This document shows, piece by piece, positions 32,167 through 61,423 of a stretch of DNA of 64,000 nt. Under the pieces are notes generated by a model that saw only the letters and a program-made list of their open reading frames with translations, made no database searches and was not told the origin of the DNA. Origin of the DNA: Candidatus Bathyarchaeota archaeon. GTDB lineage: Archaea > Thermoproteota > Bathyarchaeia > 40CM-2-53-6. How positions within the stretch are numbered: position 1 is the stretch's first letter; each line of letters opens with the position of its first letter. The stretch lies in contig CAWHWX010000001.1 of assembly GCA_963833125.1 (NCBI GenBank), positions 64,001 to 128,000 on the forward strand. The letters are read 5' to 3'. The position numbers and the translations under genes are program-made.

Positions 32167-32259
32167 TAGTGCGCCTATCCCCATTCGAACCATAGTCGTT
32201 CGTCGCTCGAAAAGTGCGTGTGTATCTCTTGGTGCGCACACACACTTAGAACGAAGGAC
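32167..32259 (+). repeat. Family A element: tRNA-3'-like half-site plus full hairpin copy
   Basis: GTCGTTCGT..AAGTGCGTGTG-TATCTCTTGGTGCG-CACACACACTT..ACGAAGGAC at 32195-32259. Confidence 0.85.
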
Positions 32260-32308
32260 CGAAATGTCCAACTTGCAGTGAACTCAAAGGTAATCCCGTG
32301 TTCTTGTG

Positions 32309-33015
32309 TTGCCGCAATTCCGTTAATCGAGGACTTAACAACTGAGCCGATACCTCCAGGGTCGAACCTGCTCGTTGAATTTGACCCGGCCTCAGAATGG
32401 TACAATGCGGCAGTTACAATCACGGCAGGATGGTTAAGTTCAGGCGGAAGGGTACACTACAACGTAAACGTTCGACCCCCAGACACTGTCCGCTCACACC
32501 TGAAAAAACTCGGTTTGAATCCGGAGGATTTTGAACGAGAAGACAAGTTGAGAATATACGACTGGTACTCACTCACCCTAGGCCGCAGGTCTGTAGGTAA
32601 GGATCCGGTCACCTCGCTAAAAGTGCACGAATTAAGTCCCGATTATGCCAACTGGATGCGAAGCGATGAGCTGAGCGAAAACGAGACCACGCTGAGAATG
32701 ATCGAGAACGGCTCGACACTAGCCAGATACAATGATGAGAAAGCGTATGTTGAATTCATCTTGACGAGAGTATTTCCCCGCTCAACACTCTGGAAAGCGA
32801 TTCTGATCAGCTCACACGTGAAGGGCTTGCACAGCGATTGGGTCAATGGGGCATTGGAATCAGCAGCCGATGGCGTAATCGATTTCAAGCTAGACGAAAC
32901 TACTGACCCGGCGCAGAATCTCATTCGGATTAGGAATTTGAGGAATGTGGGCTTCGACGGAAGGTGGCACAAGCTAAAGACTTCTAAGAGTCACGAAGTC
33001 ACCTTGGTCAAGTAA
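32309..33015 (+). CDS. KaiC/RAD55-like RecA-fold protein with degenerate Walker A (paralogue 1)
   Basis: IPLIEDL...IPPGSNLLVEFDPAS.WY, ADGVIDFK, IRIRNLR; probable TTG 32309 with a 1-bp deletion. Confidence 0.8.
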
Positions 33016-33019
33016 TTTT

Positions 33020-33051
33020 GTGTGTGGGTCGGCTGGTGCGCACACACACTT
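33020..33051 (+). repeat. Family A repeat
   Basis: GTGTGTGGGTCGGCTGGTGCGCACACACACTT fills the gap between convergent stops. Confidence 0.9.
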
Positions 33052-33055
33052 GGAC

Positions 33056-33457
33056 CTACTTTCGTTCTAACAGTTCTATCCATATGCCGTTTGGGTCTTT
33101 GACGTAGGCTTCTTTCCATCCTACGTCGAAGCCAATTTGGTATGGTTCCACGACCACTTCGATGCCTTTCCGTTTCAGTTCTTTCACGCTAGCTTCCAGA
33201 TCTTGAACGTCGAAGGCAACGTGGTCGAGGTCTTCGCCGTTAACGTAATGCGAGTTGAATGGGCTCAGGTCTTCATAATGGTTGAGTTCTAGAAGTTGCT
33301 GTGAGTTTGGGCTCTTGAGTGTAACCACACTCCCTTTTGTTGGTGTCGTCTTCTGAAGCGGCTCCACGATAACCATGCCCAAGATGCCCGTGTAGAACTT
33401 CAGAGATTCTTCCATATTTTTCACTCGTATACCGGTGTAGATGAAACGAAAATCCAA
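33056..33457 (-). CDS. VOC/glyoxalase family protein
   Basis: IRVKNMEESLKFY, LELN, DHVAFDV.D, DPNGIWIEL. Confidence 0.9.
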   Translation of the reverse strand: MDFRFIYTGIRVKNMEESLKFYTGILGMVIVEPLQKTTPTKGSVVTLKSPNSQQLLELNHYEDLSPFNSHYVNGEDLDHVAFDVQDLEASVKELKRKGIEVVVEPYQIGFDVGWKEAYVKDPNGIWIELLERK

Positions 33458-33524
33458 ACTAATGCACCTGTCGTGATCTCTTCTTCGATGGAATGGGTCT
33501 TAAGATCATTGGGGGGTAGGTCTG

Positions 33525-33606
33525 GTGTGTGTATAATCTGGTGCGGACGCCGACAATCGGACCGGTCGTTAGTGTAGGTGTGCGCACCAAGAGATACATA
33601 CACGAC
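33525..33606. repeat. Family A inverted doublet
   Basis: GTGTGTGTATAATCTGGTGCG ... GTGTGCGCACCAAGAGATACATACAC. Confidence 0.85.
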
Positions 33607-33633
33607 AAATCTAGTTACGTAGTCACAGTAGCA

Positions 33634-34575
33634 TTAGTCTGTCCGTTTCGAGTTTACTATGCGATTTATGACCTTTTTCTTAAATCCCCCACGTTTTGTG
33701 TTGTCCGGCAAGGCTTGCTCTATTATAGAGCTGTAAAATCGCATGAACTTGTAACCAAAGCACTTCTTGATGCCCGTAAGTTCACTTTTGGTTCGCATAA
33801 GTTCGATCCTAAGAGCATCTCTCTCCTTCTCCAATTCGAAGTAGAGGTCCATGAGCGCCGCGCTTCCGCCACAAAACTTTCGCCTCACCAGACGCGCATC
33901 TTCCAACACCTCAGCATATCGCTCAACAGTAATCTGATGCCTGTGAATTCTACGCCAATAGGTTACCTTAGGAATATGAAGAATATCGCAACTGGTCTTT
34001 CCAATAAGCAATGCAAGCTGCATGTCTTCCGCGTATTTTATTGACGTATCTAATCCTTCAGACTGCAAATAGAATTCTTTCCTGAAAAATAGCTCCGCTG
34101 AACCTGGCCACCATCCTGAAATTATAGCATCAACTAATGTCTTCCCGAAAGGGAGAAATTCATTCGGCCCCTTATCGCCAGTTGAATCAACCCAGTTCGT
34201 CCAAACGTAACCAAGACGAGGATTATCTTCAAATGCTGGCATTACAGCGGAAAGCGAATCAGGCATAAGCTTATCGTCACTACCTAAACATGTTATTACA
34301 GGTCCACGTGCATGCTCAATGCCCACTGCAGTAGCCGCGGAGCAACCTTCATGCTTCACCTGAACTAACGCGATTCGATCATCTGACAATTTGGACTTGA
34401 CAACTTCTACTGTTCGATCAATTGAACCGTCGTCAACAACTAAAACATCCCAATCACTATAATCCTGCGCAATCACCGAATCAATGGCGTCCCCAACGAA
34501 ACGTTCACGATCGTAAACAGGAATCAGAACGGTAACATGCAAAACATAACCACCACACCGAAAGAACTCTGCCAC
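33634..34575 (-). CDS. Glycosyltransferase family 2 with C-terminal coiled coil
   Basis: VLIPVYD, VVDDGS, LGSDD, ED. Confidence 0.88.
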   Translation of the reverse strand: MAEFFRCGGYVLHVTVLIPVYDRERFVGDAIDSVIAQDYSDWDVLVVDDGSIDRTVEVVKSKLSDDRIALVQVKHEGCSAATAVGIEHARGPVITCLGSDDKLMPDSLSAVMPAFEDNPRLGYVWTNWVDSTGDKGPNEFLPFGKTLVDAIISGWWPGSAELFFRKEFYLQSEGLDTSIKYAEDMQLALLIGKTSCDILHIPKVTYWRRIHRHQITVERYAEVLEDARLVRRKFCGGSAALMDLYFELEKERDALRIELMRTKSELTGIKKCFGYKFMRFYSSIIEQALPDNTKRGGFKKKVINRIVNSKRTD

Positions 34576-34590
34576 GTAGTTACCGTGGTT

Positions 34591-35526
34591 CTACTCTGTT
34601 CGGTACGAATCTCTTATGCAATCCTTAACCTTTCTCTTGAGCCTTCCACGTCTCGTGCCGTCCGGAAGTGCTGCGTCGATTATGGGGCCATACAGTTGCA
34701 TGAACTTGTAGCCAAGGCACTTTTTGATGTCCGTAAGTTCACTTCTGGTTCGCATAAGTTCACTCGTGATGCCCGTAAGTTCACTCCTAAGTGTTCCTAT
34801 CTCCTTCTCCAATTCGCCAAAGTAGAGGTCTGCCAGTGCGGCACTTCTTACCATAAACCTTCGCCTTATCAGATGCACTGCTTTTATCTGCTCATCGTAT
34901 GAAAGCTCATTTTGAATTCTGTGAGGATGAATTCTACGCCAGTAGGTTACCTTAGAAATATGGAGTGTGTCGCAGCCGGTCTTGGCGATCAGTAGAGCTA
35001 ATTGCAAATCCTCACCATATTGTATCGATTGGTCTAATCTTTCGGATTGCATATAGAAGCCTTTTTTGTAGAATAGCTGTGCTGAAGCGCGCCACCATCC
35101 CGAGATTAAAGCCTCAAACAATGTCTTCCCGTCAGGAAGAAAATCACTCGTACCCTTATCGCCAGTTGAATCAACCCAGTTCGTCCAAACGTAACCAAGA
35201 CGAGGATTATCTTCAAATGCTGGCATTACAGCGGAAAGCGAATCAGGCATAAGCTTATCGTCACTACCTAAATGTGTCACTACAGGTCCGCCTGCGTGCT
35301 CTATACCCATTGCAATAGCTCCCGTAACACCCGAGTGCTTCATTTGAATTAGTTGAATCCGGTCATCTGACAGCCTTGACTTGACAACTTCCACTGTTCG
35401 ATCAGTTGAACCGTCGTCAACAACTAACAGGTCCCAGTCATGATAATCCTGGCCAATCACCGAGTCAATTGCGTCCCCGATGAAATATTCACGGTTGTAA
35501 ACAGGTATTAGGACAGTAACATGCAA
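34591..35526 (-). CDS. Glycosyltransferase family 2, tandem paralogue
   Basis: VLIPVYN, VVDDGSTD, LGSDD, GED. Confidence 0.88.
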   Translation of the reverse strand: MHVTVLIPVYNREYFIGDAIDSVIGQDYHDWDLLVVDDGSTDRTVEVVKSRLSDDRIQLIQMKHSGVTGAIAMGIEHAGGPVVTHLGSDDKLMPDSLSAVMPAFEDNPRLGYVWTNWVDSTGDKGTSDFLPDGKTLFEALISGWWRASAQLFYKKGFYMQSERLDQSIQYGEDLQLALLIAKTGCDTLHISKVTYWRRIHPHRIQNELSYDEQIKAVHLIRRRFMVRSAALADLYFGELEKEIGTLRSELTGITSELMRTRSELTDIKKCLGYKFMQLYGPIIDAALPDGTRRGRLKRKVKDCIRDSYRTE

Positions 35527-35595
35527 AGTGTAACCTCACACATTGATCCAAATTACATTTATGCTCTTCGGCAACATTACATAAATATTTTTTTT

Positions 35596-35710
35596 GGGGG
35601 GCCCGGTGGTGCACACATTTAACCACCACTGCCCAGCGTGCGCGTGTCATAAGTTGAAGCGTCGTCATCCTAAAAGTGTGCGTGGGTCTAGTGGTGCGCA
35701 CACACGCACT
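35596..35710 (+). repeat. Family A cluster (degenerate copy, tRNA-like half-site, full copy)
   Basis: GGTGGTGCACACA; GTCGTC..AAAAGTGTGCGTGGGTCTAGTGGTGCGCACACACGCACT at 35661-35710. Confidence 0.85.
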
Positions 35711-35743
35711 GAGAGAGAAAAAGCGAGCTGACCATCAATCCTT

Positions 35744-36442
35744 TTGGTGAGAGAGTCAATCAGGAATGTCACAAACTTGAAGTACAGTATTGTTCTCAGC
35801 ACGACCGGAACCCGCCTCACTCTCCAAGCATCCGCAAACAATTTCGAGCACTTCACACGAACAAGAAATGATACGGAATTAATCATAGGCACGAACAACC
35901 CCACCTTAGAACAATCATGGGTCACAAAGCCACGCAACGCAAAAATCGTTTGTCGGCCCGACCATCGGGTTTGTTGGAGTGACGCAATAGATGCCTCAAG
36001 AGGTGAATTTATCGTAAACGTGGACGATGATCTCAAACTCGCCAACGACTACCTAACCCGAGCTGACCACATCTTTACGGACCCGACGCTTCAAATGATT
36101 CAACCCACCCTACTAGACGCGGAGGGCTATGTTTGTTTGCGGAAGCATTATCGAAGTTACACCATAAGCGTATTCCGTCGCAACCTCATAGAAAAGTTAG
36201 GGATGGATTATGATGGACGAGGTTCACGCTGGCCCGAAAACAACATCCCCTTTGTCGAAGCGGCGTGGGAGAAGGCTTCCGTTGTAGTCGCCATGAAGAT
36301 GTACGCGGTTCACTACGGTTACCCTACACCCCACGGAGTAGATTCAACAATTGCTCCTTACGGCAGCCGCTTAGATTTCTTGGAAGAGTGGCGTAAAGAG
36401 AACAATTACGAACGTATACCACTTGAGACAATCCTGCCATGA
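35744..36442 (+). CDS. Divergent GT-A fold glycosyltransferase
   Basis: YSIVLST, ASRGEFIVNVDDD. Confidence 0.65.
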   Translation: MVRESIRNVTNLKYSIVLSTTGTRLTLQASANNFEHFTRTRNDTELIIGTNNPTLEQSWVTKPRNAKIVCRPDHRVCWSDAIDASRGEFIVNVDDDLKLANDYLTRADHIFTDPTLQMIQPTLLDAEGYVCLRKHYRSYTISVFRRNLIEKLGMDYDGRGSRWPENNIPFVEAAWEKASVVVAMKMYAVHYGYPTPHGVDSTIAPYGSRLDFLEEWRKENNYERIPLETILP

Positions 36443-36459
36443 AAATTCTTGTTCTAACA

Positions 36460-36564
36460 GTCGTTCGTCGTGAGAAAGTGTGTGGGTCGGCTGGTGCGGG
36501 CACAGGAATTTGAACCGTGGTTCGTTTGAATTTCTTGGGGGTGCGCAGTGATACCGCACGCACG
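36460..36564. repeat. Family A inverted doublet
   Basis: GTCGTTCGTCG..AAAGTGTGTGGGTCGGCTGGTGCGGGCAC ... GGTGCGCAGTGATACCGCACGCAC. Confidence 0.85.
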
Positions 36565-36608: not shown

Positions 36609-37310
36609 TTGCCGAAGATGCCGTTAGTCGAGGACTTGATTAAGGGACCGGTTCCTCCGGGTTCTAATATTCTCGTTGAATTTGATCCAGCCTCCCAGTG
36701 GCTTAACGCATCGCTAACGATTGCTGCCGGCTGGGTGAAGGATGGAGGCAGCGTTAGCTACATTGCCAACTCCCAATCCCCAGACGACATTCGTTCACAC
36801 CTTCGAAAACTGGGCCTTGCTGTTGAGGAACTCGAGAGGACCGATCGGTTATGGATTACTGATCTATACAGTGCGTCGATAGGACAGAAATCCAAAGAAA
36901 GATTCGCGGTTGAATCGTTGAAGGTCGCGGACCTTAGCATTTGGATAGGGAGAGAGGCGATGGGTGATTCACCCGCCCCCGAATTTCTCGTAATAGCGGA
37001 TAACAATTCAATTCTCGATAGATTCAACGCCGAGAGGAATTGGGTCGAATTGTACCTCACCCGACCCATTCCAATGGCAAAGCCCAGACAAATAACCCAA
37101 CTAATAGCGTTCATGAGCGGAATTCACAGTACCTGGGCGTACAAGCAGCTCGAGGCTGCCGTTGATGGTGTCATCGATTTCAAAATTGATGAGGTAAACG
37201 GAGAACGCAAGACCTTCATGGGAATTCGGAACATGCGGAATGTTCATTTCAATTCGCGATGGTACTCATTGAAGATCGGAAAAGACTTCGAAGTCGCCTT
37301 GGAAAAGTGA
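36609..37310 (+). CDS. KaiC/RAD55-like protein with degenerate Walker A (paralogue 2)
   Basis: MPLVEDL..GPVPPGSNILVEFDPASQW, DGVIDFK, IRNMR. Confidence 0.8.
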   Translation: MPKMPLVEDLIKGPVPPGSNILVEFDPASQWLNASLTIAAGWVKDGGSVSYIANSQSPDDIRSHLRKLGLAVEELERTDRLWITDLYSASIGQKSKERFAVESLKVADLSIWIGREAMGDSPAPEFLVIADNNSILDRFNAERNWVELYLTRPIPMAKPRQITQLIAFMSGIHSTWAYKQLEAAVDGVIDFKIDEVNGERKTFMGIRNMRNVHFNSRWYSLKIGKDFEVALEK

Positions 37311-37325: not shown

Positions 37326-37370
37326 CGTTCGTTTAGTGTGCGCACCAGCCGACCCACCGCACGCAACTTT
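37326..37370 (-). repeat. Family A repeat
   Basis: Reverse complement GTGGGTCGGCTGGTGCGCACACTAAACGAACG; core identical to the 33020 copy. Confidence 0.88.
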
Positions 37371-37839: not shown

Positions 37840-37929
37840 TGTGTGGGTCGAGTGGTGCGCACACACACTTTACGATGGGCCACTGGCGGCGGTTCGAATT
37901 AGGACGGTTGCACGAATAGATACACACGC
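37840..37929. repeat. Family A inverted doublet
   Basis: TGTGTGGGTCGAGTGGTGCGCACACACACTT ... GTTCGAATT...GCACGAATAGATACACAC. Confidence 0.85.
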
Positions 37930-38097
37930 CTGAACAACATGTCCGATTTCTGACGGCACCAGCAGAAGTGTTATTTGCATTTGTATCCAATCGGTTTAGA
38001 CATTATTGAACATACTATGCGTTGGTATTCGATAAATCCACAATCGCTCCTAGATCCAATCCTAAATGAACTGAGGCTGTTTGAGTTGCAGATTTCC

Positions 38098-39186
38098 ATG
38101 CACAAAGTCTTCGAGGATATTTGGAAAATCTATCCTGAAAATATGCTCAAGAACCGCACCTGGCACTGGTGGTGGTGGATTTACTTTTTCGAGAACCCTG
38201 ACGCTCCCGAATTCCCGAGACAGCTAATGGTCCTTTGGGGCACTAGGAATTGCAGAAAGGTTCGCGTGAATGATTTCTACTGGGAACCGACAATCCCAAT
38301 GGAGACTGACGGCAAGCACGCTAGTTTCGAATCGATGGTGGCCTCCTGGTATTATGACGGCAAAAAAATGCACGAACCGCTCCTCATTGATCACGGGAAG
38401 ACTGAGACCGAGTGGGATGACCACTATGGAAGAATCAGGATGGAAGGGCGCAAAGGGGTTTATTCATACGGCGGAAACCGCGAAAAATTCTGGCTGAAGA
38501 TAGACACGGACAGCGTAGGAATTGAACTGTCAATGGAGAAATGGAAAGACGCAATGGCGGAACTGGTGTCAACGGGAAGGAAATTCGTTGGAAACATGGG
38601 ATATTCGATGTTGAAATACAGGGGTCTGTCCTCCTCGGGAAGGATCCGATTAGGCGACACCGAAACCCCAGTCAAGGGTAGATCGTATTTCCAGAAGGTG
38701 CGAATATCTTCACTAACTCCTTGTTGGTATTGGGGCACAGTACAATGGGACAATGGAGCCTACCTACAATACTTTTTGCCCCACATCGGGGTCCCGATGC
38801 TCAGACATTCAATATCCCATGAGAGTACCATGGACTGGGGTGAGAAGATGATTTCAAAGACACTCAACTTCTACGACCCCGAGGAAGGGAAGGAGTATTC
38901 CATGACGGACGTTAAGTTAACCAAGCACTACGAAAATGACCTCCCCGTATTCAATGTGAGCGCAACCTCCGGTCAAAGCGAGCTCAGCATAGAGATGGCA
39001 ACATACGCGAGATGTTGCTGGAACATATCACAACCTCTCATCGGACCAATTTGGTCTGGGATCTTCTACAATGAGTACCCAGCAACGGTCAGGAATTTCA
39101 AATTCAAAAACAGCAATCGAAGCGCAAACAATGATGATTTTGGCAAAAGCTACTGCAACTGCGAGCACACATGGGGGCTGGTTTAG
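38098..39186 (+). CDS. Trp-rich hypothetical protein, possibly AttH/tocopherol-cyclase-like beta fold
   Basis: TWHWWWWIYFF, G.I..G.....V.GRSYFQK, WYWG; fold assignment is inference. Confidence 0.55.
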   Translation: MHKVFEDIWKIYPENMLKNRTWHWWWWIYFFENPDAPEFPRQLMVLWGTRNCRKVRVNDFYWEPTIPMETDGKHASFESMVASWYYDGKKMHEPLLIDHGKTETEWDDHYGRIRMEGRKGVYSYGGNREKFWLKIDTDSVGIELSMEKWKDAMAELVSTGRKFVGNMGYSMLKYRGLSSSGRIRLGDTETPVKGRSYFQKVRISSLTPCWYWGTVQWDNGAYLQYFLPHIGVPMLRHSISHESTMDWGEKMISKTLNFYDPEEGKEYSMTDVKLTKHYENDLPVFNVSATSGQSELSIEMATYARCCWNISQPLIGPIWSGIFYNEYPATVRNFKFKNSNRSANNDDFGKSYCNCEHTWGLV

Positions 39187-39226
39187 GAAAACTGTGACTA
39201 CGAGAGTTAGTCATTCGACTGCTTTC

Positions 39227-39300
39227 TGGGTGTGCACACACACTTTTCAAACGAACGACGTTCCGATTTTGACCGGCCGCACCATTGATACCACACACAA
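39227..39300. repeat. Family A inverted doublet
   Basis: GGTGTGCACACACACTTTTCAAACGAACGAC ... CGCACCATTGATACCACACAC. Confidence 0.85.
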
Positions 39301-39432: not shown

Positions 39433-40158
39433 TTGGCTACCGTTATGGTTCCCCCATTCTTGAAGGAACTAGTTCCCGGTGGGTTCGAATATGGTGCCAA
39501 TCTTCTTGTTGAATTTGACTCCGACTCCGTCTGGTACGAAACGTCGCTCACAATCGCGGCTGGCGCAATAAGAGCGGGGATAAAGATTGACTACCACAAT
39601 TTCCAGCACACTCCCGATGACATCAGAAAAGCCCTCGACCGACGAGGATTAGACGTGAAGAGGCTAGAAGATGAGGACATGCTTTGGATCGTTGATAGCT
39701 ACACAGTACAGACAGGAGTTGATAGCTCTAGAGACCGGTCGGATGTTACTGAAGTCTCCGTGAAGCTTTCGGATTGGAGCATCGCTCTGGCTAAGGATCT
39801 TAAGGCAGGCATCTCTGAAGCCATGAAAAAGCGCCTGCATATTGACGATAACACTGGTATCCTGCTTCAGTACAACGAGGAGAAGTCCATCATAGACTTC
39901 TGGCGTACCCGGTATATACCCTATTCGAGAGCACGCGAATGTGTCATGGTACAAGCACTCTTGAAGGGCGTGGCTTCCTCCTCATTCTACAAGCAGTACG
40001 AATCGTTATGTGACGGAATAATTGATTTCAAGAGCGAAGAACGAGAGAACGAAATTCAACATTACGTGAGAGTCAGAAGTCTTCGCGGCAGGGAATGCGA
40101 TTCACGGTGGAGGAAGCTCCGGTTGTCGGATAACGGCGAAGTCACACTATTCGAATAG
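39433..40158 (+). CDS. KaiC/RAD55-like protein with degenerate Walker A (paralogue 3, more divergent)
   Basis: LVPGGFEYGANLLVEFDSDS.WY, CDGIIDFK, VRVRSLRG. Confidence 0.8.
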   Translation: MATVMVPPFLKELVPGGFEYGANLLVEFDSDSVWYETSLTIAAGAIRAGIKIDYHNFQHTPDDIRKALDRRGLDVKRLEDEDMLWIVDSYTVQTGVDSSRDRSDVTEVSVKLSDWSIALAKDLKAGISEAMKKRLHIDDNTGILLQYNEEKSIIDFWRTRYIPYSRARECVMVQALLKGVASSSFYKQYESLCDGIIDFKSEERENEIQHYVRVRSLRGRECDSRWRKLRLSDNGEVTLFE

Positions 40159-40191
40159 AAAAGTCAGTGGGTCTCCTGGTGCGCACACACA
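40159..40191 (+). repeat. Family A repeat
   Basis: AAAAGTCAGTGGGTCTCCTGGTGCGCACACACA directly after the stop. Confidence 0.85.
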
Positions 40192-40579
40192 GAAGTCCGG
40201 TGCCACAAAGCTCTCCCACTGAAACCTTGGTGCCCTTTGGAACTGTTTTATTTCATACCCATTTTTCTTAGGCGATGAGTGCTGCATTCGCGAATATTCA
40301 GACAAAGCCGTAGTTCAAAGCAAGGACATTCTTGCGATGTACTTGTCTTTCTATCCTTATATTGAACCAAGGCGAGAATGCACAAAGTTAGTTGTCATGA
40401 ACGAGAGGGACGAGTCATTTGCAACGATTGACCGCATGTTCTTCTTCTTGTTGCAACTGACCGAAGTCGCCGGAGTCTGAGGAAACAACCGAAATCTCGT
40501 TCCGACGGTAAGTGAAAGACGGAACCAGTCTTCGGCTTCATCTTGGACCCGCGACGTGGAAGATAAGGAGAAAAAATCG

Positions 40580-41809
40580 ATGAGTACTTTCGAGAAACTG
40601 GGTTTAAGCCCAGAAATATTGGATGCTATCAAAGCACTTGGGTTCGAGCGACAGTTTCCGATCCAAGAAGCAACGATTCCGCTTCTGCAGCGCGGAACCG
40701 ATGTGATTGGTCAAGCTCATACTGGAACTGGAAAGACCGCAGCCTTCGGGCTACCGCTCCTGGAGATCGTTGACGAAAAGAATCTGAATATTCAGGCGCT
40801 GGTGCTAGTTCCGACACGCGAGCTTGCGGTGCAAGTAGCAGGCGACATTAACTCGTATGGCAGATTCACTCGCAAGCGTGCTCTTGCGATCTATGGTGGT
40901 CAATCAATTAACCTTCAAATGCGCGCCTTGGAAGATTGCCCTCAGATTATAGTTGGAACGCCCGGGCGAATCATCGATCATATAGAGCGCGGATCCGTTC
41001 ACCTTGACAAAGTCCAGTACGTTGTTCTGGATGAGGCTGACAGGTTGCTGGACATGGGTTTCATTGGTGACATTGAGCATATTCTAACTAAGACTAGAAG
41101 TAAACGTCAAATCGCATTCTTCTCCGCAACTATGCCCAAGGATGTACTGAAACTTGCCCGTAGATATATGAAGAATCCTCGCGAAGTTCTGATCGAACCG
41201 GAGGATCTCAGCGTCAGGGAGATCAGCCAATACTACTACCAAGTGGACCATGAAAGAAAACTTGATGCGCTCCTAAGAATCCTGCAGGACAAAGAAGTAC
41301 AACGTGCCATAGTTTTCTGCCGAACCAAACGCAGCACATTCTGGCTGAACCAATCACTCAGGAGAAGAAATCAAGACGCCATAGCGCTAAACGGTGACCT
41401 CAGCCAACATCAACGCGATAGAGCAATGAACTCATTTCGAGGGGGTCACAGCCGTATACTGGTTGCCACTGACCTAGCCGGAAGAGGTTTAGACATTGAC
41501 GGCGTTACACACATCATCAACTATGACGTTCCTGAGAATCCGTATACTTACTTCCACAGGATTGGTCGAACCGGTCGAGCTGGCAAAACAGGAAGGGCAG
41601 TGACGATAGTATCCGCGGAACAAAATAGCGACTTTCGAGCAATACAATCGATGGCAGACGACCGGATTGAGCGACTTAACTTCACCTCTGGCCCTGGGGG
41701 GCGAGAGGAATCGTGGATATCTAGTGGTGAAACTCGTCGCGCTTTCGGGGGAAGATCACAATACCCAAGGCACCGCCGCCATTCAAACTATCGATATTCG
41801 CGCCGCTGA
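40580..41809 (+). CDS. DEAD-box RNA helicase
   Basis: Q motif, TGTGKT, PTRELA, TPGR, DEAD, SAT, ATDLAGRGLD, HRIGRTGR. Confidence 0.95.
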   Translation: MSTFEKLGLSPEILDAIKALGFERQFPIQEATIPLLQRGTDVIGQAHTGTGKTAAFGLPLLEIVDEKNLNIQALVLVPTRELAVQVAGDINSYGRFTRKRALAIYGGQSINLQMRALEDCPQIIVGTPGRIIDHIERGSVHLDKVQYVVLDEADRLLDMGFIGDIEHILTKTRSKRQIAFFSATMPKDVLKLARRYMKNPREVLIEPEDLSVREISQYYYQVDHERKLDALLRILQDKEVQRAIVFCRTKRSTFWLNQSLRRRNQDAIALNGDLSQHQRDRAMNSFRGGHSRILVATDLAGRGLDIDGVTHIINYDVPENPYTYFHRIGRTGRAGKTGRAVTIVSAEQNSDFRAIQSMADDRIERLNFTSGPGGREESWISSGETRRAFGGRSQYPRHRRHSNYRYSRR

Positions 41810-41923
41810 AGCTGCGCATTCATGAAATATTGTAGCGGCTAGTATCCTATACTTCTATACTACCGTAAAATCAGCAAACACATAACAAACGTGACGCCAC
41901 GTCGGGTTTTCCGCGAATCTGGG

Positions 41924-42397: not shown

Positions 42398-42481
42398 TGC
42401 GTGTACGCACACCACCCACTTGCAACATGATAAATCGATGAAGATCTCCAGTGGTAGTGCGCACCCACACCAAAACGGACG
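42398..42481. repeat. Degenerate family A copies
   Basis: GCGTGTACGCACACCACCCAC; GTGGTAGTGCGCACCCACACCAAAACGGACG. Confidence 0.55.
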
Positions 42482-43956: not shown

Positions 43957-44058
43957 CTTTCTGCCGATATATTCTTGCCGCACTCGTCTAAGCCTCTCCC
44001 CATTGGTCCGTAGCGTCCTCTAAAATAAATTACACTGAGAGATACTTCGCTTTCTTGA

Positions 44059-44074
44059 TGCGCACCAATAGACC
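44059..44074 (-). repeat. Family A core
   Basis: Reverse complement GGTCTATTGGTGCGCA. Confidence 0.6.
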
Positions 44075-47869: not shown

Positions 47870-47905
47870 CTGTGTGGTGGGGGGTATGCTGGTGCGCACA
47901 CACAG
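47870..47905 (+). repeat. Family A repeat
   Basis: CTGTGTG GTGGGGGGTATGCTGGTGCG CACACACAG. Confidence 0.8.
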
Positions 47906-49151: not shown

Positions 49152-49806
49152 TCAACTTTTCTTTCGCAGAGTAACGAAGAAGAGGTTTCGAGGAAGTTCT
49201 CCTTCCTGGAATTGCTGGACATCCATTATCTCGTATCCTTCTGCCAAAGATTCCACTTGTTTTTCATCAAAGAAACGAACGACGAACCCATCAGTTTCGT
49301 ACATATCCTCACCCCTAGCGATTCCTCTCGCGTAATGCGGATCCTGTTTTGTTCTGACGGTGAAAATGTTCAGGCCGTTAGCTTTGAGAATTCGTTTCAC
49401 CTCTCGTGAAAGAGATTCGAGCTGATCCACTGTTAAGGCCATAGAGTACAACATGTGAGAGTAGCAACCGTCCATAGATTTGCTTGGAAAGGGAAGTGGA
49501 GGTTCGCACGTCATGACACATGGAAATTACTGAATTGGAAAGTCCTAACGCTTGTGCCGTTCTCTTCAATGCGTCTATTGCAGTCTTACTGTAATCTATC
49601 GCATGCACTCTAACACCATGTAGGGCGAAAAATAACGTGTCTCTACCGTGACCACATCCGAGTTCAAGGATGTCGCGGATGTCGTTTGCCTTGAATTGTT
49701 GTAGTGCCCTTTGTGCGGCGAAGCTTGGAAGTTTGCCGTACAGAGTTGGTTCTTTTGAATAGGTGCTTTCCCAATGCTCAACTTGTCTGTTCAGCAGATC
49801 CTTCAT
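49152..49806 (-). CDS. Class I SAM-dependent methyltransferase; frameshift near 49495
   Basis: ILELGCGHGRD motif I, then PLPF...D..YS and RILK.NG in the second frame. Confidence 0.85.
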
Positions 49807-51618: not shown

Positions 51619-52554
51619 TTACTGGTATTGTTTACCCGGCCTGAGGCCGCCTGTGAATTCGATGGTTTCGAAGAGTTGGTGAACTTTCTCAGGCACACCC
51701 TCTACAACATTCAACCCGATAGCGCGTGCCACATCCAACGTGATCGGTGTACTACTCGACATAAACCCGCCAACCAGGAAGTTGGCTACCTGTGTCGCTT
51801 GTTCTTCGTTCATATGATCGATCAAGAGCCATTTCACAAACTCTTTTGCATTTTCTTCCTCCATGCGTGCAGATTCGGCGAGGAGGATGGTGCGGTCGGA
51901 GATGGTTTCGATTGGTTTACGCTTCAGGATACCCATTACCAGGGTCGCTGGCATATCATCAATGAGCGGCTCTAGGGGGGCTAGGATGCTGCATTTCTCC
52001 ATCATGATCTCGTCCGCGGCCAGGACGACGTATGTGCCGTCGGACATGGCGTAGAACGGAACCATAACCGTCACCTTCGCCTGATGATACCTCAACGCCA
52101 TCGAGATCAGGTCAGCAGCAAAAGTCAGCCCGCCTTCTGTGTGTACGATGAAGTCTATCGGCTTATCCGGCGGAGTCTCTCGCACTTGTTGGAGGATTAA
52201 TTCAGAATCCTCAAACCCGATCTCGGGCTCATCATCACTCGCACTCCAAGGCTCCTTCCGGTGAATAAGGGTTAGAACCCTCGACCCACGCTCCTCCTCC
52301 AACTCATGAACCAACTGAGCCCTCCGAGAGAGTATCTCTTCTTTCGAGGGGGTCCTCTCGGTTTCACCTTCAGCCTCATCCTCGTCCTCGTCTTCATCGT
52401 CTTCCTCGTCCTCTTCATCACTCCCCTTCGTTATGGGGGTGGGTGTTTGGGGGATCTGCCAGAAACGGTGTATCACAAAGAGATTGGTCAATGAACTAAG
52501 AGAAGCCACTACCACGATCGCTATGGCAAGGAGTAGGTCCAACTCTTGCATCAT
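51619..52554 (-). CDS. SDH-family paralogue, probably catalytically inactive
   Basis: HTEGG, AMSDGT, LAPLEPL, SSSTPI in place of the canonical motifs. Confidence 0.8.
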   Translation of the reverse strand: MMQELDLLLAIAIVVVASLSSLTNLFVIHRFWQIPQTPTPITKGSDEEDEEDDEDEDEDEAEGETERTPSKEEILSRRAQLVHELEEERGSRVLTLIHRKEPWSASDDEPEIGFEDSELILQQVRETPPDKPIDFIVHTEGGLTFAADLISMALRYHQAKVTVMVPFYAMSDGTYVVLAADEIMMEKCSILAPLEPLIDDMPATLVMGILKRKPIETISDRTILLAESARMEEENAKEFVKWLLIDHMNEEQATQVANFLVGGFMSSSTPITLDVARAIGLNVVEGVPEKVHQLFETIEFTGGLRPGKQYQ

Positions 52555-52660
52555 GCTTCACCTGTAACCACGTCACAAAATCTAGGTGAGTGTAGTAGTT
52601 GGAGTCTAAAGGTTTTCGTGTATCGAGGACTAGATACCTGCTGGAGAACCACGACTATTC

Positions 52661-52730
52661 AGTGTGGTGCACACGCACAGAATCCGGGAGGGGTCAAATT
52701 TGAGTGCTCGCACCATCAGACCAACACACC
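52661..52730. repeat. Family A inverted doublet
   Basis: GTGTGGTGCACACGCACAG ... GGTCAAATTTGAGTGCTCGCACCATCAGACCAACACACC. Confidence 0.8.
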
Positions 52731-52789
52731 CTGAAAAAACCGAAAACCAAAACTCCCAGTCTAATAGATGATTATTGTGTGTTCCCCTC

Positions 52790-53491
52790 GTGCCGAGGAT
52801 CCCGTTAATCGAGAACCTAACCACCGCTCCCATACCACCTGGCACGAATATTCTTGTAGAGTTTGATGCTGCTTCGCAGTGGTACAATGCGTGCGTAACA
52901 ATTCTGGCAGGCTGGGTCAAGACAGGCGGAAGCACCTCCTACCTTTTGTCTGCTAGACCTCCGGAGAGCATCCGCTCACAACTTCGCCGTTTTGGGTTAG
53001 ATCCGGGAGAACTCGAGAGTAAGGGCAGGCTTCAGATATGGGACTTTTACTCTGCCACTCTCGGCCAGAGGTCCCAAGAAAAGTACGGCTTCGATTCACT
53101 GAAAGTCGCCGACCTAAGCATAATTATCTCAAGAGGGCAAATGCATCGACAGCCCTCACCGGACCACATGTACATCACCGAAAACACTTCCGTCCTCACC
53201 AGATTCAACGACGAGAAAAGTACGGTCGAATACCTTTTGACAAGAGCGCTTCCGACAGCAACCATAACTAAATCCACTAGCGTCCGCGGCATCATCACGG
53301 GTGTTCACAGTGACTCGGTTTACAGGCAACTTGAGGCGGCCGCGGACGGTGTTGTTGATCTTAAAGTCGAAGAGGTGGAAGGCGAGGTAAAGAATCTCAT
53401 TCGCATCCGAAAAATGCTTAACGCCACGTTTGACGCGCGCTGGCATCCGCTAAAGGTCGACCAAAACTTCGAAGTCACGTTAGATACGTAG
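52790..53491 (+). CDS. KaiC/RAD55-like protein with degenerate Walker A (paralogue 4)
   Basis: PRIPLIENL...IPPGTNILVEFDAASQWY, ADGVVDLK, IRIRKM. Confidence 0.8.
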   Translation: MPRIPLIENLTTAPIPPGTNILVEFDAASQWYNACVTILAGWVKTGGSTSYLLSARPPESIRSQLRRFGLDPGELESKGRLQIWDFYSATLGQRSQEKYGFDSLKVADLSIIISRGQMHRQPSPDHMYITENTSVLTRFNDEKSTVEYLLTRALPTATITKSTSVRGIITGVHSDSVYRQLEAAADGVVDLKVEEVEGEVKNLIRIRKMLNATFDARWHPLKVDQNFEVTLDT

Positions 53492-53499
53492 ACGCTAAC

Positions 53500-53540
53500 T
53501 CGTTTTTGGTGTGTGCCCAACATTGATCCCACACACAAAA
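53500..53540 (-). repeat. Family A repeat
   Basis: Reverse complement TTTTGTGTGTGGGATCAATGTTGGGCACACACCAAAAACGA. Confidence 0.75.
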
Positions 53541-55429: not shown

Positions 55430-55497
55430 CAGGTTGGGCAACGTAATTTGAACCATCGTCGTCCGTAAAAGTGTGCGCGCACCATTAGACCCACACA
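55430..55497 (-). repeat. Family A repeat with degenerate partner
   Basis: AATTTGAACC-ATCGTCGTCCGTAAAAGTGTGCGCGCACCATTAGACCCACACA. Confidence 0.85.
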
Positions 55498-55673: not shown

Positions 55674-56180
55674 CTATGGTGCCTGCTGGCTTTCAGGTTG
55701 CCTACGCACTCGCTGAATGGCTTGGAGCAGGGCGTTCTCTGCCGTCAAATACGAGATCAGACCTGTGGTCAGCAGTGTTTCGCAGGCGTCACTCTTCGAC
55801 GTCCGTTTTGTCGCCGCATAGGCTTCAATCAACCTAGCGTAGCCTGCGGGAAGGATCAACGTGAACACATCAGTCTCTCGACCCACATCATCCCTCACGA
55901 TAGGGTAAATTCTCGTTCGGGGCTTATGTGAAGCAGCCTGCTCTAACATGTCAGCCATGCGGCCCAGATGAACCATTGTCTCTAGCCTGTCCCGATTCTC
56001 TTGCTTCCGTAACCCCAGCCACTTCAGAGTTGCTCCGAGAACTATCAGCATCCTCACAAGATCACTCAACGCCCATTTTTCTTTCTGAGCCACACCCCTC
56101 ACCTGGAAGAGAAGCATTCTTGGAACTCGAATCGACCAACGCCTATATCGCGTGGCCACCGTCCCTGTAGCCTCGGCCAC
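55674..56180 (-). CDS. Hypothetical protein with two ribbon-helix-helix-like segments
   Basis: WSIRVP.......A......LSDLVR and FTLILP.......A......KSDAC; inference. Confidence 0.5.
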   Translation of the reverse strand: MAEATGTVATRYRRWSIRVPRMLLFQVRGVAQKEKWALSDLVRMLIVLGATLKWLGLRKQENRDRLETMVHLGRMADMLEQAASHKPRTRIYPIVRDDVGRETDVFTLILPAGYARLIEAYAATKRTSKSDACETLLTTGLISYLTAENALLQAIQRVRRQPESQQAP

Positions 56181-57889: not shown

Positions 57890-57930
57890 GTGTGAGTCTA
57901 TGGGTGCGCACACACACCAACCGAACGACG
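57890..57930 (+). repeat. Family A repeat
   Basis: GTGTGAGTCTATGGGTGCGCACACACACCAACCGAACGACG. Confidence 0.85.
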
Positions 57931-59138: not shown

Positions 59139-59154
59139 CCTTACTGATTTCGAA

Positions 59155-59562
59155 GTGACCTATGGTGCGACACTTGAGGTAATCCTATCATTGGTCCGAA
59201 AGTTCGCGGCACTAATGGCTACTGGAAGAGCCAAATCTAGCTCAGATATATTCAAGAGACGTTTTGATGAGATGAAATTCAAATTATCTCCGCTGATTGA
59301 AGAAGTCGAAAGTGCCCTCATACGCGCCCAAACCCTGAAGTGGTACATGATTCTGTCCGATAGTGCAGACGATGTTGAGAAATCATTACAATTCACTCTG
59401 GACAAAGATGAGTTGAATAGACTACACTGGGAATTCAAAGAGGAGGCAACGCATCTGAGAAAGACGATTATGCGTCTTGATAGTGACGCCTTCAAATCTC
59501 TCGTGCCTGACAGCGAACTCAAATCCAATTTCGACGAGATGGCGATGTCCGTAATTGGCTGA
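59155..59562 (+). CDS. Hypothetical acidic helical protein, candidate antitoxin/partner
   Basis: Immediately upstream of the PIN gene. Confidence 0.5.
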   Translation: MTYGATLEVILSLVRKFAALMATGRAKSSSDIFKRRFDEMKFKLSPLIEEVESALIRAQTLKWYMILSDSADDVEKSLQFTLDKDELNRLHWEFKEEATHLRKTIMRLDSDAFKSLVPDSELKSNFDEMAMSVIG

Positions 59563-59569
59563 TTGACGT

Positions 59570-60328
59570 TTGTCTCTTCCGCCAAGGCCGATACTCTTCT
59601 TAGATTCATCAATTGTGATGTCCCATGTACTGAATCAGAATCAAACAATAATGACCAAATTCACGAAGGACATACCCAAGTATCACTTGAATTGCGCTGT
59701 GTCCAGCAGCGTGAAATCCGAGACCGTCTACAAAGTAAATCAATTGATTCAGTTTCTTGATAAGGCACTAATTGTCACGATCAAGAACACAATGGCAAAA
59801 CAACGAAAGTTGGATAAAAGGAAGGATTCTGAACCCATTGGCATACGTGATTTTCTGGCCGTGGAAGCGGCGTTCTACCATTTCTATCTTTACGGAGCTG
59901 GTATTGCAGATCTGAAAGCGATTGAGACCTTTGTCGTATGCTATCTTGAGAACAAACTCTCTTCTAATCCCCCAATTACACCTCAAACCGCTTTTATAGA
60001 AATGGTAGCATGGGTTCTCAAGAGAATTTCTGATATTCGCACTGCTCTTGACAAAGCAATCTTACTGAAACAAGAATTAGCTAAAGAGTACACGATTACG
60101 CCAAACCAAGCTGATGTAATCATGCTTGAGGGATTTGGCTTGGATAAGAGAGACGCTGAGCACATAGCTAGTGCCAAACAAGCACAACGGGGCGGAATAT
60201 GCAGCAAGGCTATTTTCGTCACGCTTGATTATACGACAATTATAACATATCAAACAAGGATTTTCAATGAGCCTCAACTAGCAATATGGTGCACAGATCC
60301 TCTCTATTGTGCATACCACACCTTCTAG
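59570..60328 (+). CDS. PIN-domain (VapC-like) nuclease with a long helical insertion
   Basis: LFLDSS, V..E, DAEHIASA, FVTLD acidic tetrad. Confidence 0.7.
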   Translation: MSLPPRPILFLDSSIVMSHVLNQNQTIMTKFTKDIPKYHLNCAVSSSVKSETVYKVNQLIQFLDKALIVTIKNTMAKQRKLDKRKDSEPIGIRDFLAVEAAFYHFYLYGAGIADLKAIETFVVCYLENKLSSNPPITPQTAFIEMVAWVLKRISDIRTALDKAILLKQELAKEYTITPNQADVIMLEGFGLDKRDAEHIASAKQAQRGGICSKAIFVTLDYTTIITYQTRIFNEPQLAIWCTDPLYCAYHTF

Positions 60329-60690
60329 CGTGGACCAGTTTTCTACTCGACGCTTAGCTCCTTCAACCGACTTTTTGAAGGTAAAGCTATCAATCGTCAA
60401 ATTCACGTTACCCATCGCTTGGGATTTTTCCCGCTTAGTATATCCATAGTTTCATATTCTTCAGTGCGGCGTTTTCTAAGGTTCCTCGCCGCTTCCGCGT
60501 ATACTTTCACTGTTGTGTAGCCTTCGCGTGCTTCAATTCTCATAACTTATAATCTATCGACTTGTCGTTTTCACTTCATTTCCATTCATTTTCCGTTTCA
60601 CAGAGACTTACGTTCCGTAGAGAGTGCGATTCGCCGACGTTACGCCAACATACCCTCATCGTGCACAACGTATTTACGGCGGCGGGGGCG

Positions 60691-60741
60691 GCGCACCATT
60701 AATACCACGCACACTTTTACCGACGACGGACGGACGACGAC
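60691..60741 (-). repeat. Family A repeat
   Basis: Reverse complement GTCGTCGTCCGTCCGTCGTCGGTAAAAGTGTGCGTGGTATTAATGGTGCGC. Confidence 0.82.
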
Positions 60742-60793
60742 AAAGTTGAATATCTTATCATAAGAGTTAGGATCCTGCGTGTCTGCAGAAGTA

Positions 60794-61288
60794 ATGAACA
60801 TGATACAAAAAATAACTCCATTTCTATGGTTCGATGGCCAGGCCGAAGAAGCAGCGATATTTTACGTTTCCATTTTCAAGAATTCAAAAATTCTGAATGT
60901 TTCCCGCTACACCGAGGTGGGAAATGAAGTCCATGGGCGAGAGCCTGGGTCAGTTATGATTGTGGAGTTCCAGTTGGAGGGACAAAGGTTCATCGCACTC
61001 AATGGTGGGCCGCAGTTCAAGTTCACCGAGGCCGTATCGTTCTCCGTGGACTGTAAGACCCAAGAGGAAGTTGACCGTTTCTGGAAGAAGCTCTCTGAAG
61101 GCGGAGAGGAAGGGCCGTGCGGCTGGTTGAAAGATAAATACGGATTGTCGTGGCAGATCAATCCCACCATCTTAGGCGAATTATTGGGGGACAAGGACGC
61201 CGAGAAAGCGGGAAGAGTTATGGACGCAATGCTCAAGATGAAAAAGATCGACATCGCGGCGCTGAGAAAGGCGTACAAGGGACGATAG
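60794..61288 (+). CDS. VOC/PhnB (3-demethylubiquinone-9 3-methyltransferase domain) protein
   Basis: [41 protein letters not shown]. Confidence 0.9.
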
Positions 61289-61372
61289 TATAAGAGCGAA
61301 GTAACCCAACATCAGGAGGTCCGTCGAAGGAGGGTCCCTCGACAGGTCCCTCCCCCCCGGTTTACCAGGGTG

Positions 61373-61423
61373 TTCGTTTAGTGTGCGTGTGCGCGCACCA
61401 TTAGTACCCCACACACACTAAAC
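61373..61423 (-). repeat. Family A repeat, last copy
   Basis: GTTTAGTGTG CGTGTGCGCGCACCATTAGTACCCCACA CACACTAAAC; perfect 10-bp outer stem. Confidence 0.88.

Follow-up and report, generated by a model that had tools for sequence, protein, structure and literature searches.

The stretch analysed here, referred to as the window, comprises 64,000 nucleotides of a Candidatus Bathyarchaeota archaeon (positions 64001-128000 of contig C1 in assembly G000), and its central part is an island of mostly single accessory genes separated by copies of a short, imperfectly palindromic repeat (family A). We found that these repeat copies are probably the junctions of casposon-type insertions, made by a stand-alone Cas1 that lacks the usual family-B DNA polymerase (PolB) at targets resembling the 3' end of a tRNA gene and leaving 14-bp duplications which begin with CGCA. 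The observations that carry this reading are the composite anatomy of the sites, the identity of their centre with a tRNA 3' end and its trailer, the excess and polarity of 14-mers shared by neighbouring sites, the co-distribution of stand-alone Cas1 with the repeats among relatives, and the breakage of shared DNA at the sites. The assembly comprises 3.07 Mb in 39 contigs, with completeness rated at 87.8% and contamination at 7%.

The repeat family is real, as an earlier note on this sequence had held. Its core word TGGTGCGCACAC, with up to two mismatches, has 22 matches in the window, where 100 shuffles gave 4.09 on average and 9 at most; 21 of the 22 fall inside 32,230-61,400. De novo repeat finding also returned the same family (families D4, D6, D7 and D10). 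With a 50-nt profile built from 15 copies, window matches were taken at E ≤ 20 (35 matches) and considered credible at E ≤ 0.3; nineteen copies pass this cut and all are located within 32,223-61,407. Three further weak copies were noticed in the island (35600, 42448-42473 and 52658). Matches outside it, three before 32 kb (E 2-10) and one after 61.5 kb (E 14), are at chance level, and the rest of the window holds no credible copy, in agreement with the first description. Seventeen of the 18 loci listed in the earlier note were recovered at E ≤ 0.3, whereas 42450 is weak only (E about 9-13). None of the sites at E ≤ 0.3 overlaps the 32 open reading frames (ORFs) used as the gene set, most of which have Pfam support (those without it include 31071-31811, 35744-36442, 37975-39186 and 55674-56180), and the sole overlap is a chance-level match at 57317 (E 2.2); the placement of copies outside credible coding sequences thus stands. 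Closeness to stop codons was likewise seen: the site at 33027 follows the stop at 33015 by 12 nt and precedes that at 33056 by 16 nt, and the site at 40170 is 12 nt past the stop at 40158. The sites and two weaker copies are listed below.

32223..32236, minus strand: site 1 (E 7.5e-09), 14-mer CGCACCAAGAGATA with a (GT)n arm before it in sense; upstream of KaiC-like 1.
33027..33040, minus strand: site 2 (E 1.9e-10), 14-mer CGCACCAGCCGACC, arms (GT)n and (CA)n both present; flanked by the stop codons of KaiC-like 1 and a VOC gene.
33532..33545, minus strand: site 3 (E 2e-05), 14-mer CGCACCAGATTATA, T-arm-like sequence upstream; adjoins site 4 back-to-back.
33583..33596, plus strand: site 4, 14-mer CGCACCAAGAGATA, which is that of site 1 inverted; homology of the GT2 unit begins just past its (CA)-type arm.
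35685..35698, minus strand: site 5, 14-mer CGCACCACTAGACC with a (GT)n arm; right edge of the GT2 unit, where homology stops at TGGTGCG.
36485..36498, minus strand: site 6, 14-mer CGCACCAGCCGACC with a T-arm-like leader (..GGTTCAAATTCCTGTGCC) before it and (CA)n after it.
37341..37354, plus strand: site 7, 14-mer CGCACCAGCCGACC, which is that of site 6 inverted; 31 nt past the stop of KaiC-like 2.
37846..37859, minus strand: site 8 (E 8e-10), 14-mer CGCACCACTCGACC with both arms; in a divergent intergenic region.
39221..39234, minus strand: site 9 (E 0.037), degenerate CACACCCAGAAAGC with a (GT)n arm.
39278..39291, plus strand: site 10 (E 0.098), 14-mer CGCACCATTGATAC; the upstream ..CCGGCCGCACCA resembles a real tRNA 3' end.
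40170..40183, minus strand: site 11, 14-mer CGCACCAGGAGACC with a (GT)n arm; 12 nt past the stop of KaiC-like 3.
44061..44074, plus strand: site 12 (E 0.26), 14-mer CGCACCAATAGACC without arms.
47883..47896, minus strand: site 13 (E 1.7e-06), 14-mer CGCACCAGCATACC with a (GT)n arm.
52709..52722, plus strand: site 14 (E 2e-07), 14-mer CGCACCATCAGACC, T-arm-like upstream; weak inverted partner at 52658-52671 (E 1).
53516..53529, plus strand: site 15 (E 8.9e-07), degenerate 14-mer CCCAACATTGATCC with both arms; 25 nt past the stop of KaiC-like 4.
55478..55491, plus strand: site 16 (E 1.6e-08), 14-mer CGCACCATTAGACC with a (CA)n arm.
57895..57908, minus strand: site 17 (E 5.2e-08), 14-mer CGCACCCATAGACT with a (GT)n arm.
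60692..60705, plus strand: site 18 (E 0.067), 14-mer CGCACCATTAATAC after a (GGC)n-type arm, a second kind of element end (compare L126 below).
61394..61407, plus strand: site 19 (E 5e-08), 14-mer CGCACCATTAGTAC; last copy of the island.
42448..42473, no strand assigned: weak, doubtful copy (E 9-13).
35600-35613, no strand assigned: weak copy (E 0.29).

The enclosure of single genes by same-orientation copies, described earlier, holds for KaiC-like 1 and 4, whereas KaiC-like 2 has inverted copies. The family is also not confined to this stretch, as the scan of the whole contig and of related genomes showed: copies occur in islands across this genome and patchily in relatives. At E ≤ 0.05 the whole assembly holds 58 copies grouped in islands, with 15 in the window island and the others at C1:321-350 kb, C28:139-159 kb, C14:65-67 kb, C16:446-449 kb and C18:126-129 kb and on small contigs. 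These copies are mostly intergenic (judged with a crude ORF caller). By the ends of the flanking genes, 15 of the 58 are of the 3'/3' type, 14 of the 5'/5' type and 27 tandem, and since this split is near-random the copies are not biased to the 3' ends of genes. It is therefore hardly credible that they are host regulatory or terminator hairpins travelling with their genes. Several copies do lie 5-30 nt from stops and runs of A and T flank the arms, but 14 of the 58 are placed between divergent gene starts, the consensus shows a T-run before and an A-run after the hairpin on both strands, and occurrence in relatives is patchy. Rfam gathering thresholds gave no family match in the window, in line with the first description of the repeat as unrecognised.

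The anatomy of the sites becomes clear when they are read on the opposite strand, where the order is (GT)n, CGCA-CCA-NNN-GACC and (CA)n. In this tRNA sense, 277 distinct copies from G000 and from loci of relatives gave the consensus tgTGTGTGTG-CGCA-CCA-nTA-GACC-CACACACA. CGCACCA is its best-conserved part, with 1.6-1.7 bits per position for CGCA, while the NNN positions are free. With introns allowed, ARAGORN detected a tRNA gene with the acceptor GCGGCCG on contigs C18, C6, C29 and C16. It ends with ..GGCCGCACCA, as does an intron-bearing tRNA gene at L001:7838-7997, and is followed by CCAGACC-CACACACAC-TTT..ACGAACGAC, and a second partial copy with the T-arm-like GGTTCAAATTT is found downstream of it. 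Because the 3' end of this gene and the sequence after it match the repeat, the repeat consists of the last 7 nt of a tRNA, 7 nt of trailer and (CA)n. The asymmetric centre CGCACCANNNGACC is exactly 14 nt long, begins with CGCA at the tRNA 3' end and is preceded by T-arm-like sequence in a minority of copies. A directional core had been described before; its asymmetry is real, and what had been missed is its identity with a tRNA 3' end.

Among 336 sites sorted into copy classes, a (GT)n arm was found in 240, a T-loop-like stretch in its place in 57 (about 17%) and a (CA)n arm in 217. In the set of 277 copies, (GT)n is directly upstream in 215 and a T-loop-like word stands there instead in 30. 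Words of the T-loop are strongly oriented in the same set: sense words downstream number 42 against 4 in the control and reverse-complement words upstream 59 against 7. The palindromic look of the sites follows from their (GT)n and (CA)n arms. A hairpin selected for pairing, as the earlier note had envisaged, gained no support from covariation: RNAalifold on 15 copies gave only a 3-bp invariant helix, fixed-register pair counts over the 277 copies equal the composition expectation, and the flank complementarity of real pairs is not above that of permuted partners, a weak control as the permuted flanks share family motifs.

ARAGORN, which may overlook intron-rich archaeal tRNAs, found no tRNA gene in the window and none in 10 loci of relatives with leader-like copies. 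A search of the genome with tRNA 3' ends by BLAST was swamped by tRNA-tRNA cross-matches and was set aside. Most tRNA genes of G000 carry at least one intron and encode the CCA end, and several ARAGORN calls there, with supposed introns 0.5-1.9 kb long, are likely to be artefacts or interrupted genes. A chimeric copy at L059 (about 7792-7860) joins the family linker and T-loop word to the acceptor end of a different tRNA (..CCCTCTCCCGGCGCCA), so more than one tRNA 3' end is imitated. On C29 (about 4620-6330), a 1.7-kb segment with an NHL-repeat gene is located upstream of the tRNA gene, with 25 nt of the tRNA 5' end repeated directly on its two sides; C18:125833-125857 is without this insertion, which may be of a different kind at the same tRNA.

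Direct duplication was examined in 180 neighbouring site pairs spaced 150-6000 nt apart, comprising 94 direct, 52 (+,-) and 34 (-,+) pairs. The variable 7 nt are identical in 10 of the 94 direct pairs (P=7e-4), in none of the 52 (+,-) pairs and in 3 of the 34 (-,+) pairs, against 3.1% of random pairs, and direct neighbours share the 14-mer 3.4x above chance. These ten identical direct pairs are polar. The upstream copy is leader-like, with T-arm-like sequence before the 14-mer, in seven (background 57/336, P=3e-4), whereas the downstream copy is leader-like in none and has (GT)n in eight. The same polarity was observed over 93 direct pairs, where a leader is upstream in 23 versus downstream in 8 and (GT)n upstream in 62 versus downstream in 82. 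Where the flanks of a pair differ, identity ends after 14-15 nt. In the window, the leader-like copy at 36485 and the (GT)n copy at 33027 form such a pair around 3.4 kb in which other sites are nested.

Serial integration and decay of elements with tRNA-targeting tyrosine integrases would leave attachment-site scars, and we regard this origin as quite improbable. It would account for the tRNA 3' end in the copies and for the T-arm-like stretch in 57 of 336 sites, and passages of PMC6563490 describe archaeal integrative elements as commonly using tRNA genes and forming arrays. One integrase gene was in fact found about 5 kb from the C28 island. No other integrase or fragment was detected in 8 island loci (121 ORFs), and PF00589, the tyrosine recombinase domain, is absent from contig C1 and from G018, a genome 98% complete with 59 copies. 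Furthermore, the GT-arm consensus (215/277) differs from the tRNA and is conserved across genera, which is unexpected of decaying scars, and the duplicated identity covers 14-15 nt and not the whole tRNA-like part.

A candidate enzyme for casposon-type insertion was found in relatives. Clustering of 802 ORFs from 101 repeat-bearing loci of relatives returned a Cas1 family in nine loci, with three full-length genes (404-425 aa) and six fragments. The Cas1 protein matches chain 6opm_A over residues 4-402 (E 3.9e-74), whereas Cas1 chains of CRISPR systems match at 6e-24 or weaker. 6OPM is the structure of the Methanosarcina mazei casposase, and the alignment spans the C-terminal part that passages of PMC6977970 call the helix-turn-helix (HTH) domain and describe as essential for integration. 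A family-B polymerase domain (DNA_pol_B) was absent from the 31 ORFs around six Cas1 loci (Pfam, E ≤ 1e-3) and, around 13 more, from the 71 ORFs nearest to cas1 out of 113 (each 100 aa or longer and within ±4.5 kb; E ≤ 1e-5). Genes for Cas2, Cas4 and effectors were also absent among the scanned Cas1 neighbours of these 19 loci; the neighbours found encode AIPR, DUF4365, YaaC, Ymh, TIR, HNH, DNA methylase, ParB-N and unknown proteins.

This Cas1 is co-distributed with the repeats. Forty-one relatives, 22 of them of the same genus, were scanned for repeats with a sequence-only covariance model, and for Cas1 with the L084 protein as query and at least 40% identity as a match. Cas1 matches occur in 17 of the 23 relatives with at least six repeats, both outlying families included, and in none of the 18 with fewer (Fisher P 7e-7, overstated as kin are not independent). 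In an even, class-wide sample of 151 genomes, 11 have both features, 5 repeats only, 4 casposase-like fragments only and 131 neither (P 3e-10, likewise inflated by kinship); the positives are spread over six families, other members of which are without both. Intact Cas1 is present in a minority of genomes and fragments in many, a pattern which would be that of an autonomous element with many non-autonomous dependants. In G000, PF01867 gave no match and the only Cas1 relic is a 58-codon fragment (C1:351580-351699), so the units of the window could only be non-autonomous derivatives. Two candidate autonomous elements were observed in relatives, each with Cas1 between identical direct 14-mers and a leader-like copy upstream: one of 8.6 kb with (CA)n/(GT)n ends (L119) and one of 7.2 kb with (CCG)n/(CGG)n ends (L126).

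In the proposed mechanism, each site would consist of the right end of one element (...(GT)n), a 14-bp duplication of the target site (TSD; CGCA-CCA-NNN-GACC) and, after it, the next element's left end or the original flanking sequence ((CA)n...), giving the grammar leader-TSD-(CA)n...(GT)n-TSD. The primary target would be the 3' end of a tRNA gene, comprising its last 7 bp with CGCA and CCA and 7 bp downstream. The T-arm region of the tRNA would act as the upstream 'leader' and dispersed pseudo-leaders resembling tRNA 3' ends would offer further targets. The integrase would be the stand-alone Cas1, a casposase homologue with a C-terminal HTH that is encoded in some relatives. The approximately 20 units of the window would be non-autonomous, PolB-less elements of 0.5-3.5 kb that arrived by tandem and nested insertion and were later reshuffled. 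We infer the role of Cas1 as the inserting enzyme, and also the excision or copying of the elements and their spread from cell to cell. It is conceivable, at somewhat less than even chances, that Bathyarchaeia harbour a casposase-driven gene-cassette system in which a stand-alone Cas1 without PolB inserts gene-sized DNA beside tRNA-like leaders, duplicates a 14-bp CGCA repeat at every insertion and over time builds leader-repeat-insert-repeat arrays with dozens of accessory genes per genome.

Several observations weigh against casposon-type insertion by this Cas1. Four repeat-rich genomes have no casposase-like match (G018 with 59 copies, G016 with 38, G007 with 37 and G005 with 17). The Cas1 gene copies are homologous over the ORF only and stand in operon-like settings without element ends beside the gene, and because of this limited homology and these contexts Cas1 could be mere cargo of the islands. 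Two arginines which read CGCA in the M. mazei enzyme align to H-Q, with the numbering offset inferred. The inverted identity of (CA)n after and (GT)n before the 14-mers is short (8-18 nt) and of low complexity. Most direct neighbours (84/94) do not share a 14-mer and only 10 do. Neighbouring pairs are inverted in 86 of 180 cases, something not foreseen by simple tandem insertion; three inverted pairs share the 14-mer, including 36485/37341 around KaiC-like 2, and a comparison of C32 with L078 shows the core in opposite orientation on the same flank. The left boundary of the DEAD-box helicase unit described below is also not at a fixed point. The inversions may be accounted for by the CGCA on the opposite strand of the TGCGCA palindrome, and a symmetrised target is described in parts of PMC6977970 as working for the M. 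mazei casposase.

The distribution of the repeats is patchy. The family is present in 21 of the 22 same-genus genomes (0-76 copies each), in two genomes of other families in the order (22 and 25 copies) and in 16 of the 151 genomes of the class-wide sample, and loci with the exact 19-base pattern belong mostly to metagenome-assembled genomes (MAGs) of Bathyarchaeia. Such patchiness would be as expected for a mobile element. Other enzymes were considered and rejected. The Y1/HUH transposase (PF01797) was found in only 1 of the 41 genomes and not in G000. The IS110 transposase is present in 9 of the 41 and also not in G000, and because of this limited occurrence IS110 is seen as a secondary invader of the sites. 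The prediction that a recombinase lies elsewhere fits, as no recombinase gene was found in the window island, whereas the tyrosine recombinase or HUH gene expected to be co-distributed with the motif did not emerge.

IS110 elements target repetitive extragenic palindromes (REPs). In one relative, an IS110-family element occurs thrice at 99.8% identity (L022:3467-4825, L070:1335-2694 and L019:1-1119) with an ORF of 356 aa that has DEDD_Tnp_IS110 and Transposase_20 domains, and its copies share one insertion point inside the (CA) arm of family A sites (..GACCCACAC|CTATG..). This shared point is among the features that a selfish or host palindrome of the REP or MITE (miniature inverted-repeat transposable element) type would explain, with a hairpin of about 35 nt that has no link to Cas1 and copies that serve as short homologies for ordinary recombination. 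The copies are strictly extragenic imperfect palindromes in both orientations, sometimes back-to-back, they use intergenic types at random (15/14/27 of 58) and range from 0 to 76 within one genus, and in one case the loop orientation differs on an identical flank. We nevertheless consider this explanation unlikely: the transposase that goes with REPs (Y1/RAYT, REP-associated tyrosine transposase) is found in that single genome only, and the pair polarity, the 14-nt limit of identity, the tRNA 3' end with trailer and the co-distribution with casposase-like genes are left unexplained.

The units between sites are small, mostly single-gene and of accessory type (VOC, GNAT, GT2, KaiC-like, helicase and others), which bears out the cassette-like cargo first described. 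The following units and genes of the window were noted.

33041..36484, minus strand: candidate 3.4-kb composite element, bounded by identical 14-mers in direct orientation (site 6 upstream, site 2 downstream), with a 232-aa ORF, two GT2 genes and a VOC gene; sites 3-5 are nested in it.
33597..35684, no strand assigned: two-glycosyltransferase unit, common to another species at 89% identity in a different neighbourhood.
40202..41883, plus strand: DEAD-box helicase unit, at 91-95% identity in 7 other loci with unrelated neighbours.
36609..37310, plus strand: KaiC-like paralog 2, Walker A motif missing; frequent cargo beside sites.
32308-33015, 39433-40158 and 52775-53491: KaiC-like paralogs 1, 3 and 4.

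Long synteny of the island or of its left flank was not found in the 22 same-genus genomes, where only single genes match. Gene order in relatives had been suggested as a check, and shared units indeed break at the sites. As an example, the GT2 unit (33583-35698) recurs in G016 at 89% identity with family copies on both sides and unrelated DNA beyond them. The helicase unit has a family copy about 100 nt past the stop in 4 of its 7 other loci, and C39 of the same assembly holds a second helicase unit at 95% identity. The KaiC-like genes, a 403-aa gene and a beta-helix pair are shared as single units in relatives in the same way, and single genes at 86-95% identity were observed in unrelated contexts, ending at sites. 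Among 63 inter-genome high-scoring segment pairs of at least 400 nt, many stop no more than 30 nt from a copy, in one genome or in both. Contigs C18 and C29, with flanks 93-98% identical, agree up to the tRNA and its trailer and again from a fixed degenerate copy on; between these fixed sites C18 has one KaiC-like gene, and C29 a KaiC-like fragment, a site, a VOC gene and a further site. On these comparisons the sites mark the boundaries of mobile, mostly single-gene units.

Contigs of four public sequencing runs, compared at 90% likeness, also diverge from the window at sites (33019, 35676, 37840, 39299, 40167 and 41883), which only repeats the point that other populations would share single units; the best run holds 23% of the sampled window words. 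Joints in these runs between sites (for example 33049>35677 and 35710>39255) have sides of 20-31 letters, at the risk of repeats or other organisms, and were not used.

In G000 the KaiC-like family gave 26 hmmsearch matches, and the 12 which lie within 400 nt of a repeat are all among the 20 best-scoring. These paralogs have a KaiC/RecA fold of about 235 aa without Walker A (..PPGSNILVEFDPASQW..), and many are truncated. They are the commonest neighbours of the repeat, with strong enrichment beside it in G000, and were rejected as its enzyme, since they are not co-distributed with it (repeats/paralogs 71/1 in G002, 53/0 in G013, 55/0 in G017 and 2/9 in G001). In relatives, paralogs of the TATA-binding protein recur in repeat-rich islands (L033:3779-4456 and four others; 5 of 101 loci), as do GYD, DoxX and DUF4386 genes.

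The earlier note had interpreted the island as an integron-analogous platform. The analogy captures the outcome, modular capture and shuffling of accessory genes with the enzyme elsewhere, and not the mechanism. An integron-like platform in the strict sense, with folded single-stranded hairpins, a structure-specific recombinase and circular cassettes, is very unlikely. It would suit accessory-gene arrays split by imperfect palindromes with an asymmetric centre and reshuffled unit by unit, and the recombinase-free clusters resemble clusters of attC sites lacking integrases (CALINs) as portrayed in parts of PMC9668308. In disagreement with it, the RYYYAAC and GTTRRRY boxes of attC ends are absent from the copies, as the first reading had recognised, pairing covariation does not exceed composition, intergenic types are near-random, the genes occur in both orientations and no tyrosine recombinase co-occurs (G018 has no integrase). 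In addition, neither a TSD-like duplication nor leader polarity is a feature of exchange between attC sites. The composite anatomy of element end, 14-bp duplication and element end fits the sites better than an integron-like mechanism.

Among known systems, the family 2 casposons of Methanosarcina mazei and Aciduliprofundum boonei come closest. In passages of PMC6977970 and PMC4779613, the M. mazei casposons produce TSDs of 14 bp that invariably start with an essential CGCA, their target is tRNA-Leu, where the site overlaps the last bases at the 3' end of the gene, and they require about 30 bp of upstream tRNA sequence; tandem arrays share one TSD while solo terminal inverted repeats (TIRs) or ends occur. 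With these the system described here has in common a Cas1 in relatives with a C-terminal extension and full-length similarity to the M. mazei casposase and, set beside those passages, a CGCA-led duplication of 14-15 bp, a tRNA 3' end target with upstream tRNA sequence, a shared tandem duplication and solo ends. Unlike casposons, no family-B polymerase was seen among the scanned ORFs around the 19 Cas1 loci, and most units lack Cas1, span 0.5-3.5 kb and carry one or few cargo genes. Sites number 40-76 per genome here against one to three, the ends are short (CA)n or (CCG)n tracts against TIRs of about 31 bp, and dispersed tRNA-like pseudo-leaders, many inverted sites and a Bathyarchaeia host are further differences. 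For the site family we found the direct 14-15-bp TSD and the preference for CGCA and a tRNA 3' end, with most pairs non-identical, and in the window units neither casposase nor PolB. These units are filed as non-autonomous casposon-like cargo elements and not as casposons because they are without casposase and polymerase. As to MITEs, a TSD, short ends and a candidate autonomous partner are present, but the units themselves hold genes and have no internal sequence in common with the elements that carry Cas1.

Resemblances to other systems are partial. As in integron arrays and CALINs, imperfect palindromes separate strings of small, mostly single-gene accessory cassettes, a recombinase is missing near many clusters and cassettes are shared between species in differing contexts; unlike integrons, IntI and an attC consensus are missing, genes occupy both strands, and the site is composite with a 14-bp duplication in place of conservative exchange. 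Extragenic imperfect palindromes, some inverted pairs and insertion of IS110-family elements are shared with REPs and bacterial interspersed mosaic elements, whereas the lack of a Y1 transposase (1/41, not in G000), the clustering in islands, the tRNA-derived core and the TSD polarity are unlike REP/RAYT systems. CRISPR arrays use the same enzyme family and leader-adjacent insertion that duplicates a short repeat to give repeat-insert-repeat. In contrast to them, the inserts here are gene-sized and bring ends of their own, the repeat measures 14 bp, Cas1 has no Cas2, Cas4 or effectors beside it, and CRISPR RNA evidence was not seen.

A literature search, with supplements not covered, returned no description of such casposons or Cas1-solo elements in Bathyarchaeia beyond passing mentions of casposons, and, among the papers listed, nothing relevant on non-autonomous or miniature casposons. 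Casposons are proposed ancestors of CRISPR adaptation and have been known so far as few, large, polymerase-carrying elements per genome, whereas here a genome has 40-76 occurrences of the same target grammar, around single accessory genes and in most cases with no integrase. If the proposed reading is true, Cas1 would be able to capture genes in general and thereby to mould the flexible genome of a lineage that abounds in soil and peat, and leader-side repeat arrays split by inserted DNA, a postulated step towards CRISPR, would exist in nature. The system would then be a living intermediate between a casposon and a CRISPR array, and a third route of modular gene capture beside integrons and pdif-type modules. 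For annotation, the sites flag the boundaries of mobile units and explain contig breaks in these MAGs.

Small contigs of G000 often end near a repeat copy. The assembly mixes related strains: C6 repeats 7.9 kb of C18 at 96%, and C29 is a 93-98% variant of the same region. C28 has tRNA genes without introns, one of them next to an integrase, and may thus be foreign or chimeric in part; the start of C16 (C16:1240-12959) has six matches to the Phage_integrase family within 12 kb.

A second repeat family (GTACCGGTAAGTTGGGGTCAGAATCCCCT..) was noticed in the window at 15091-15128, 17750-17787, 20981-21018 and 52255-52292. It resembles the T-arm of other G000 tRNAs (..GGGGTTCGAATCCCCTCCCCCGCACCA), and longer versions that end in CGCACCA adjoin family A copies on C9 and C11. 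Finally, adjoining or overlapping ORF pairs in the window at 49152-49806, 42557-43983 and 44281-45856 carry the halves of one domain family each (methyltransferase, beta-helix and amino-acid permease), which suggests frameshifted or decaying cargo genes.

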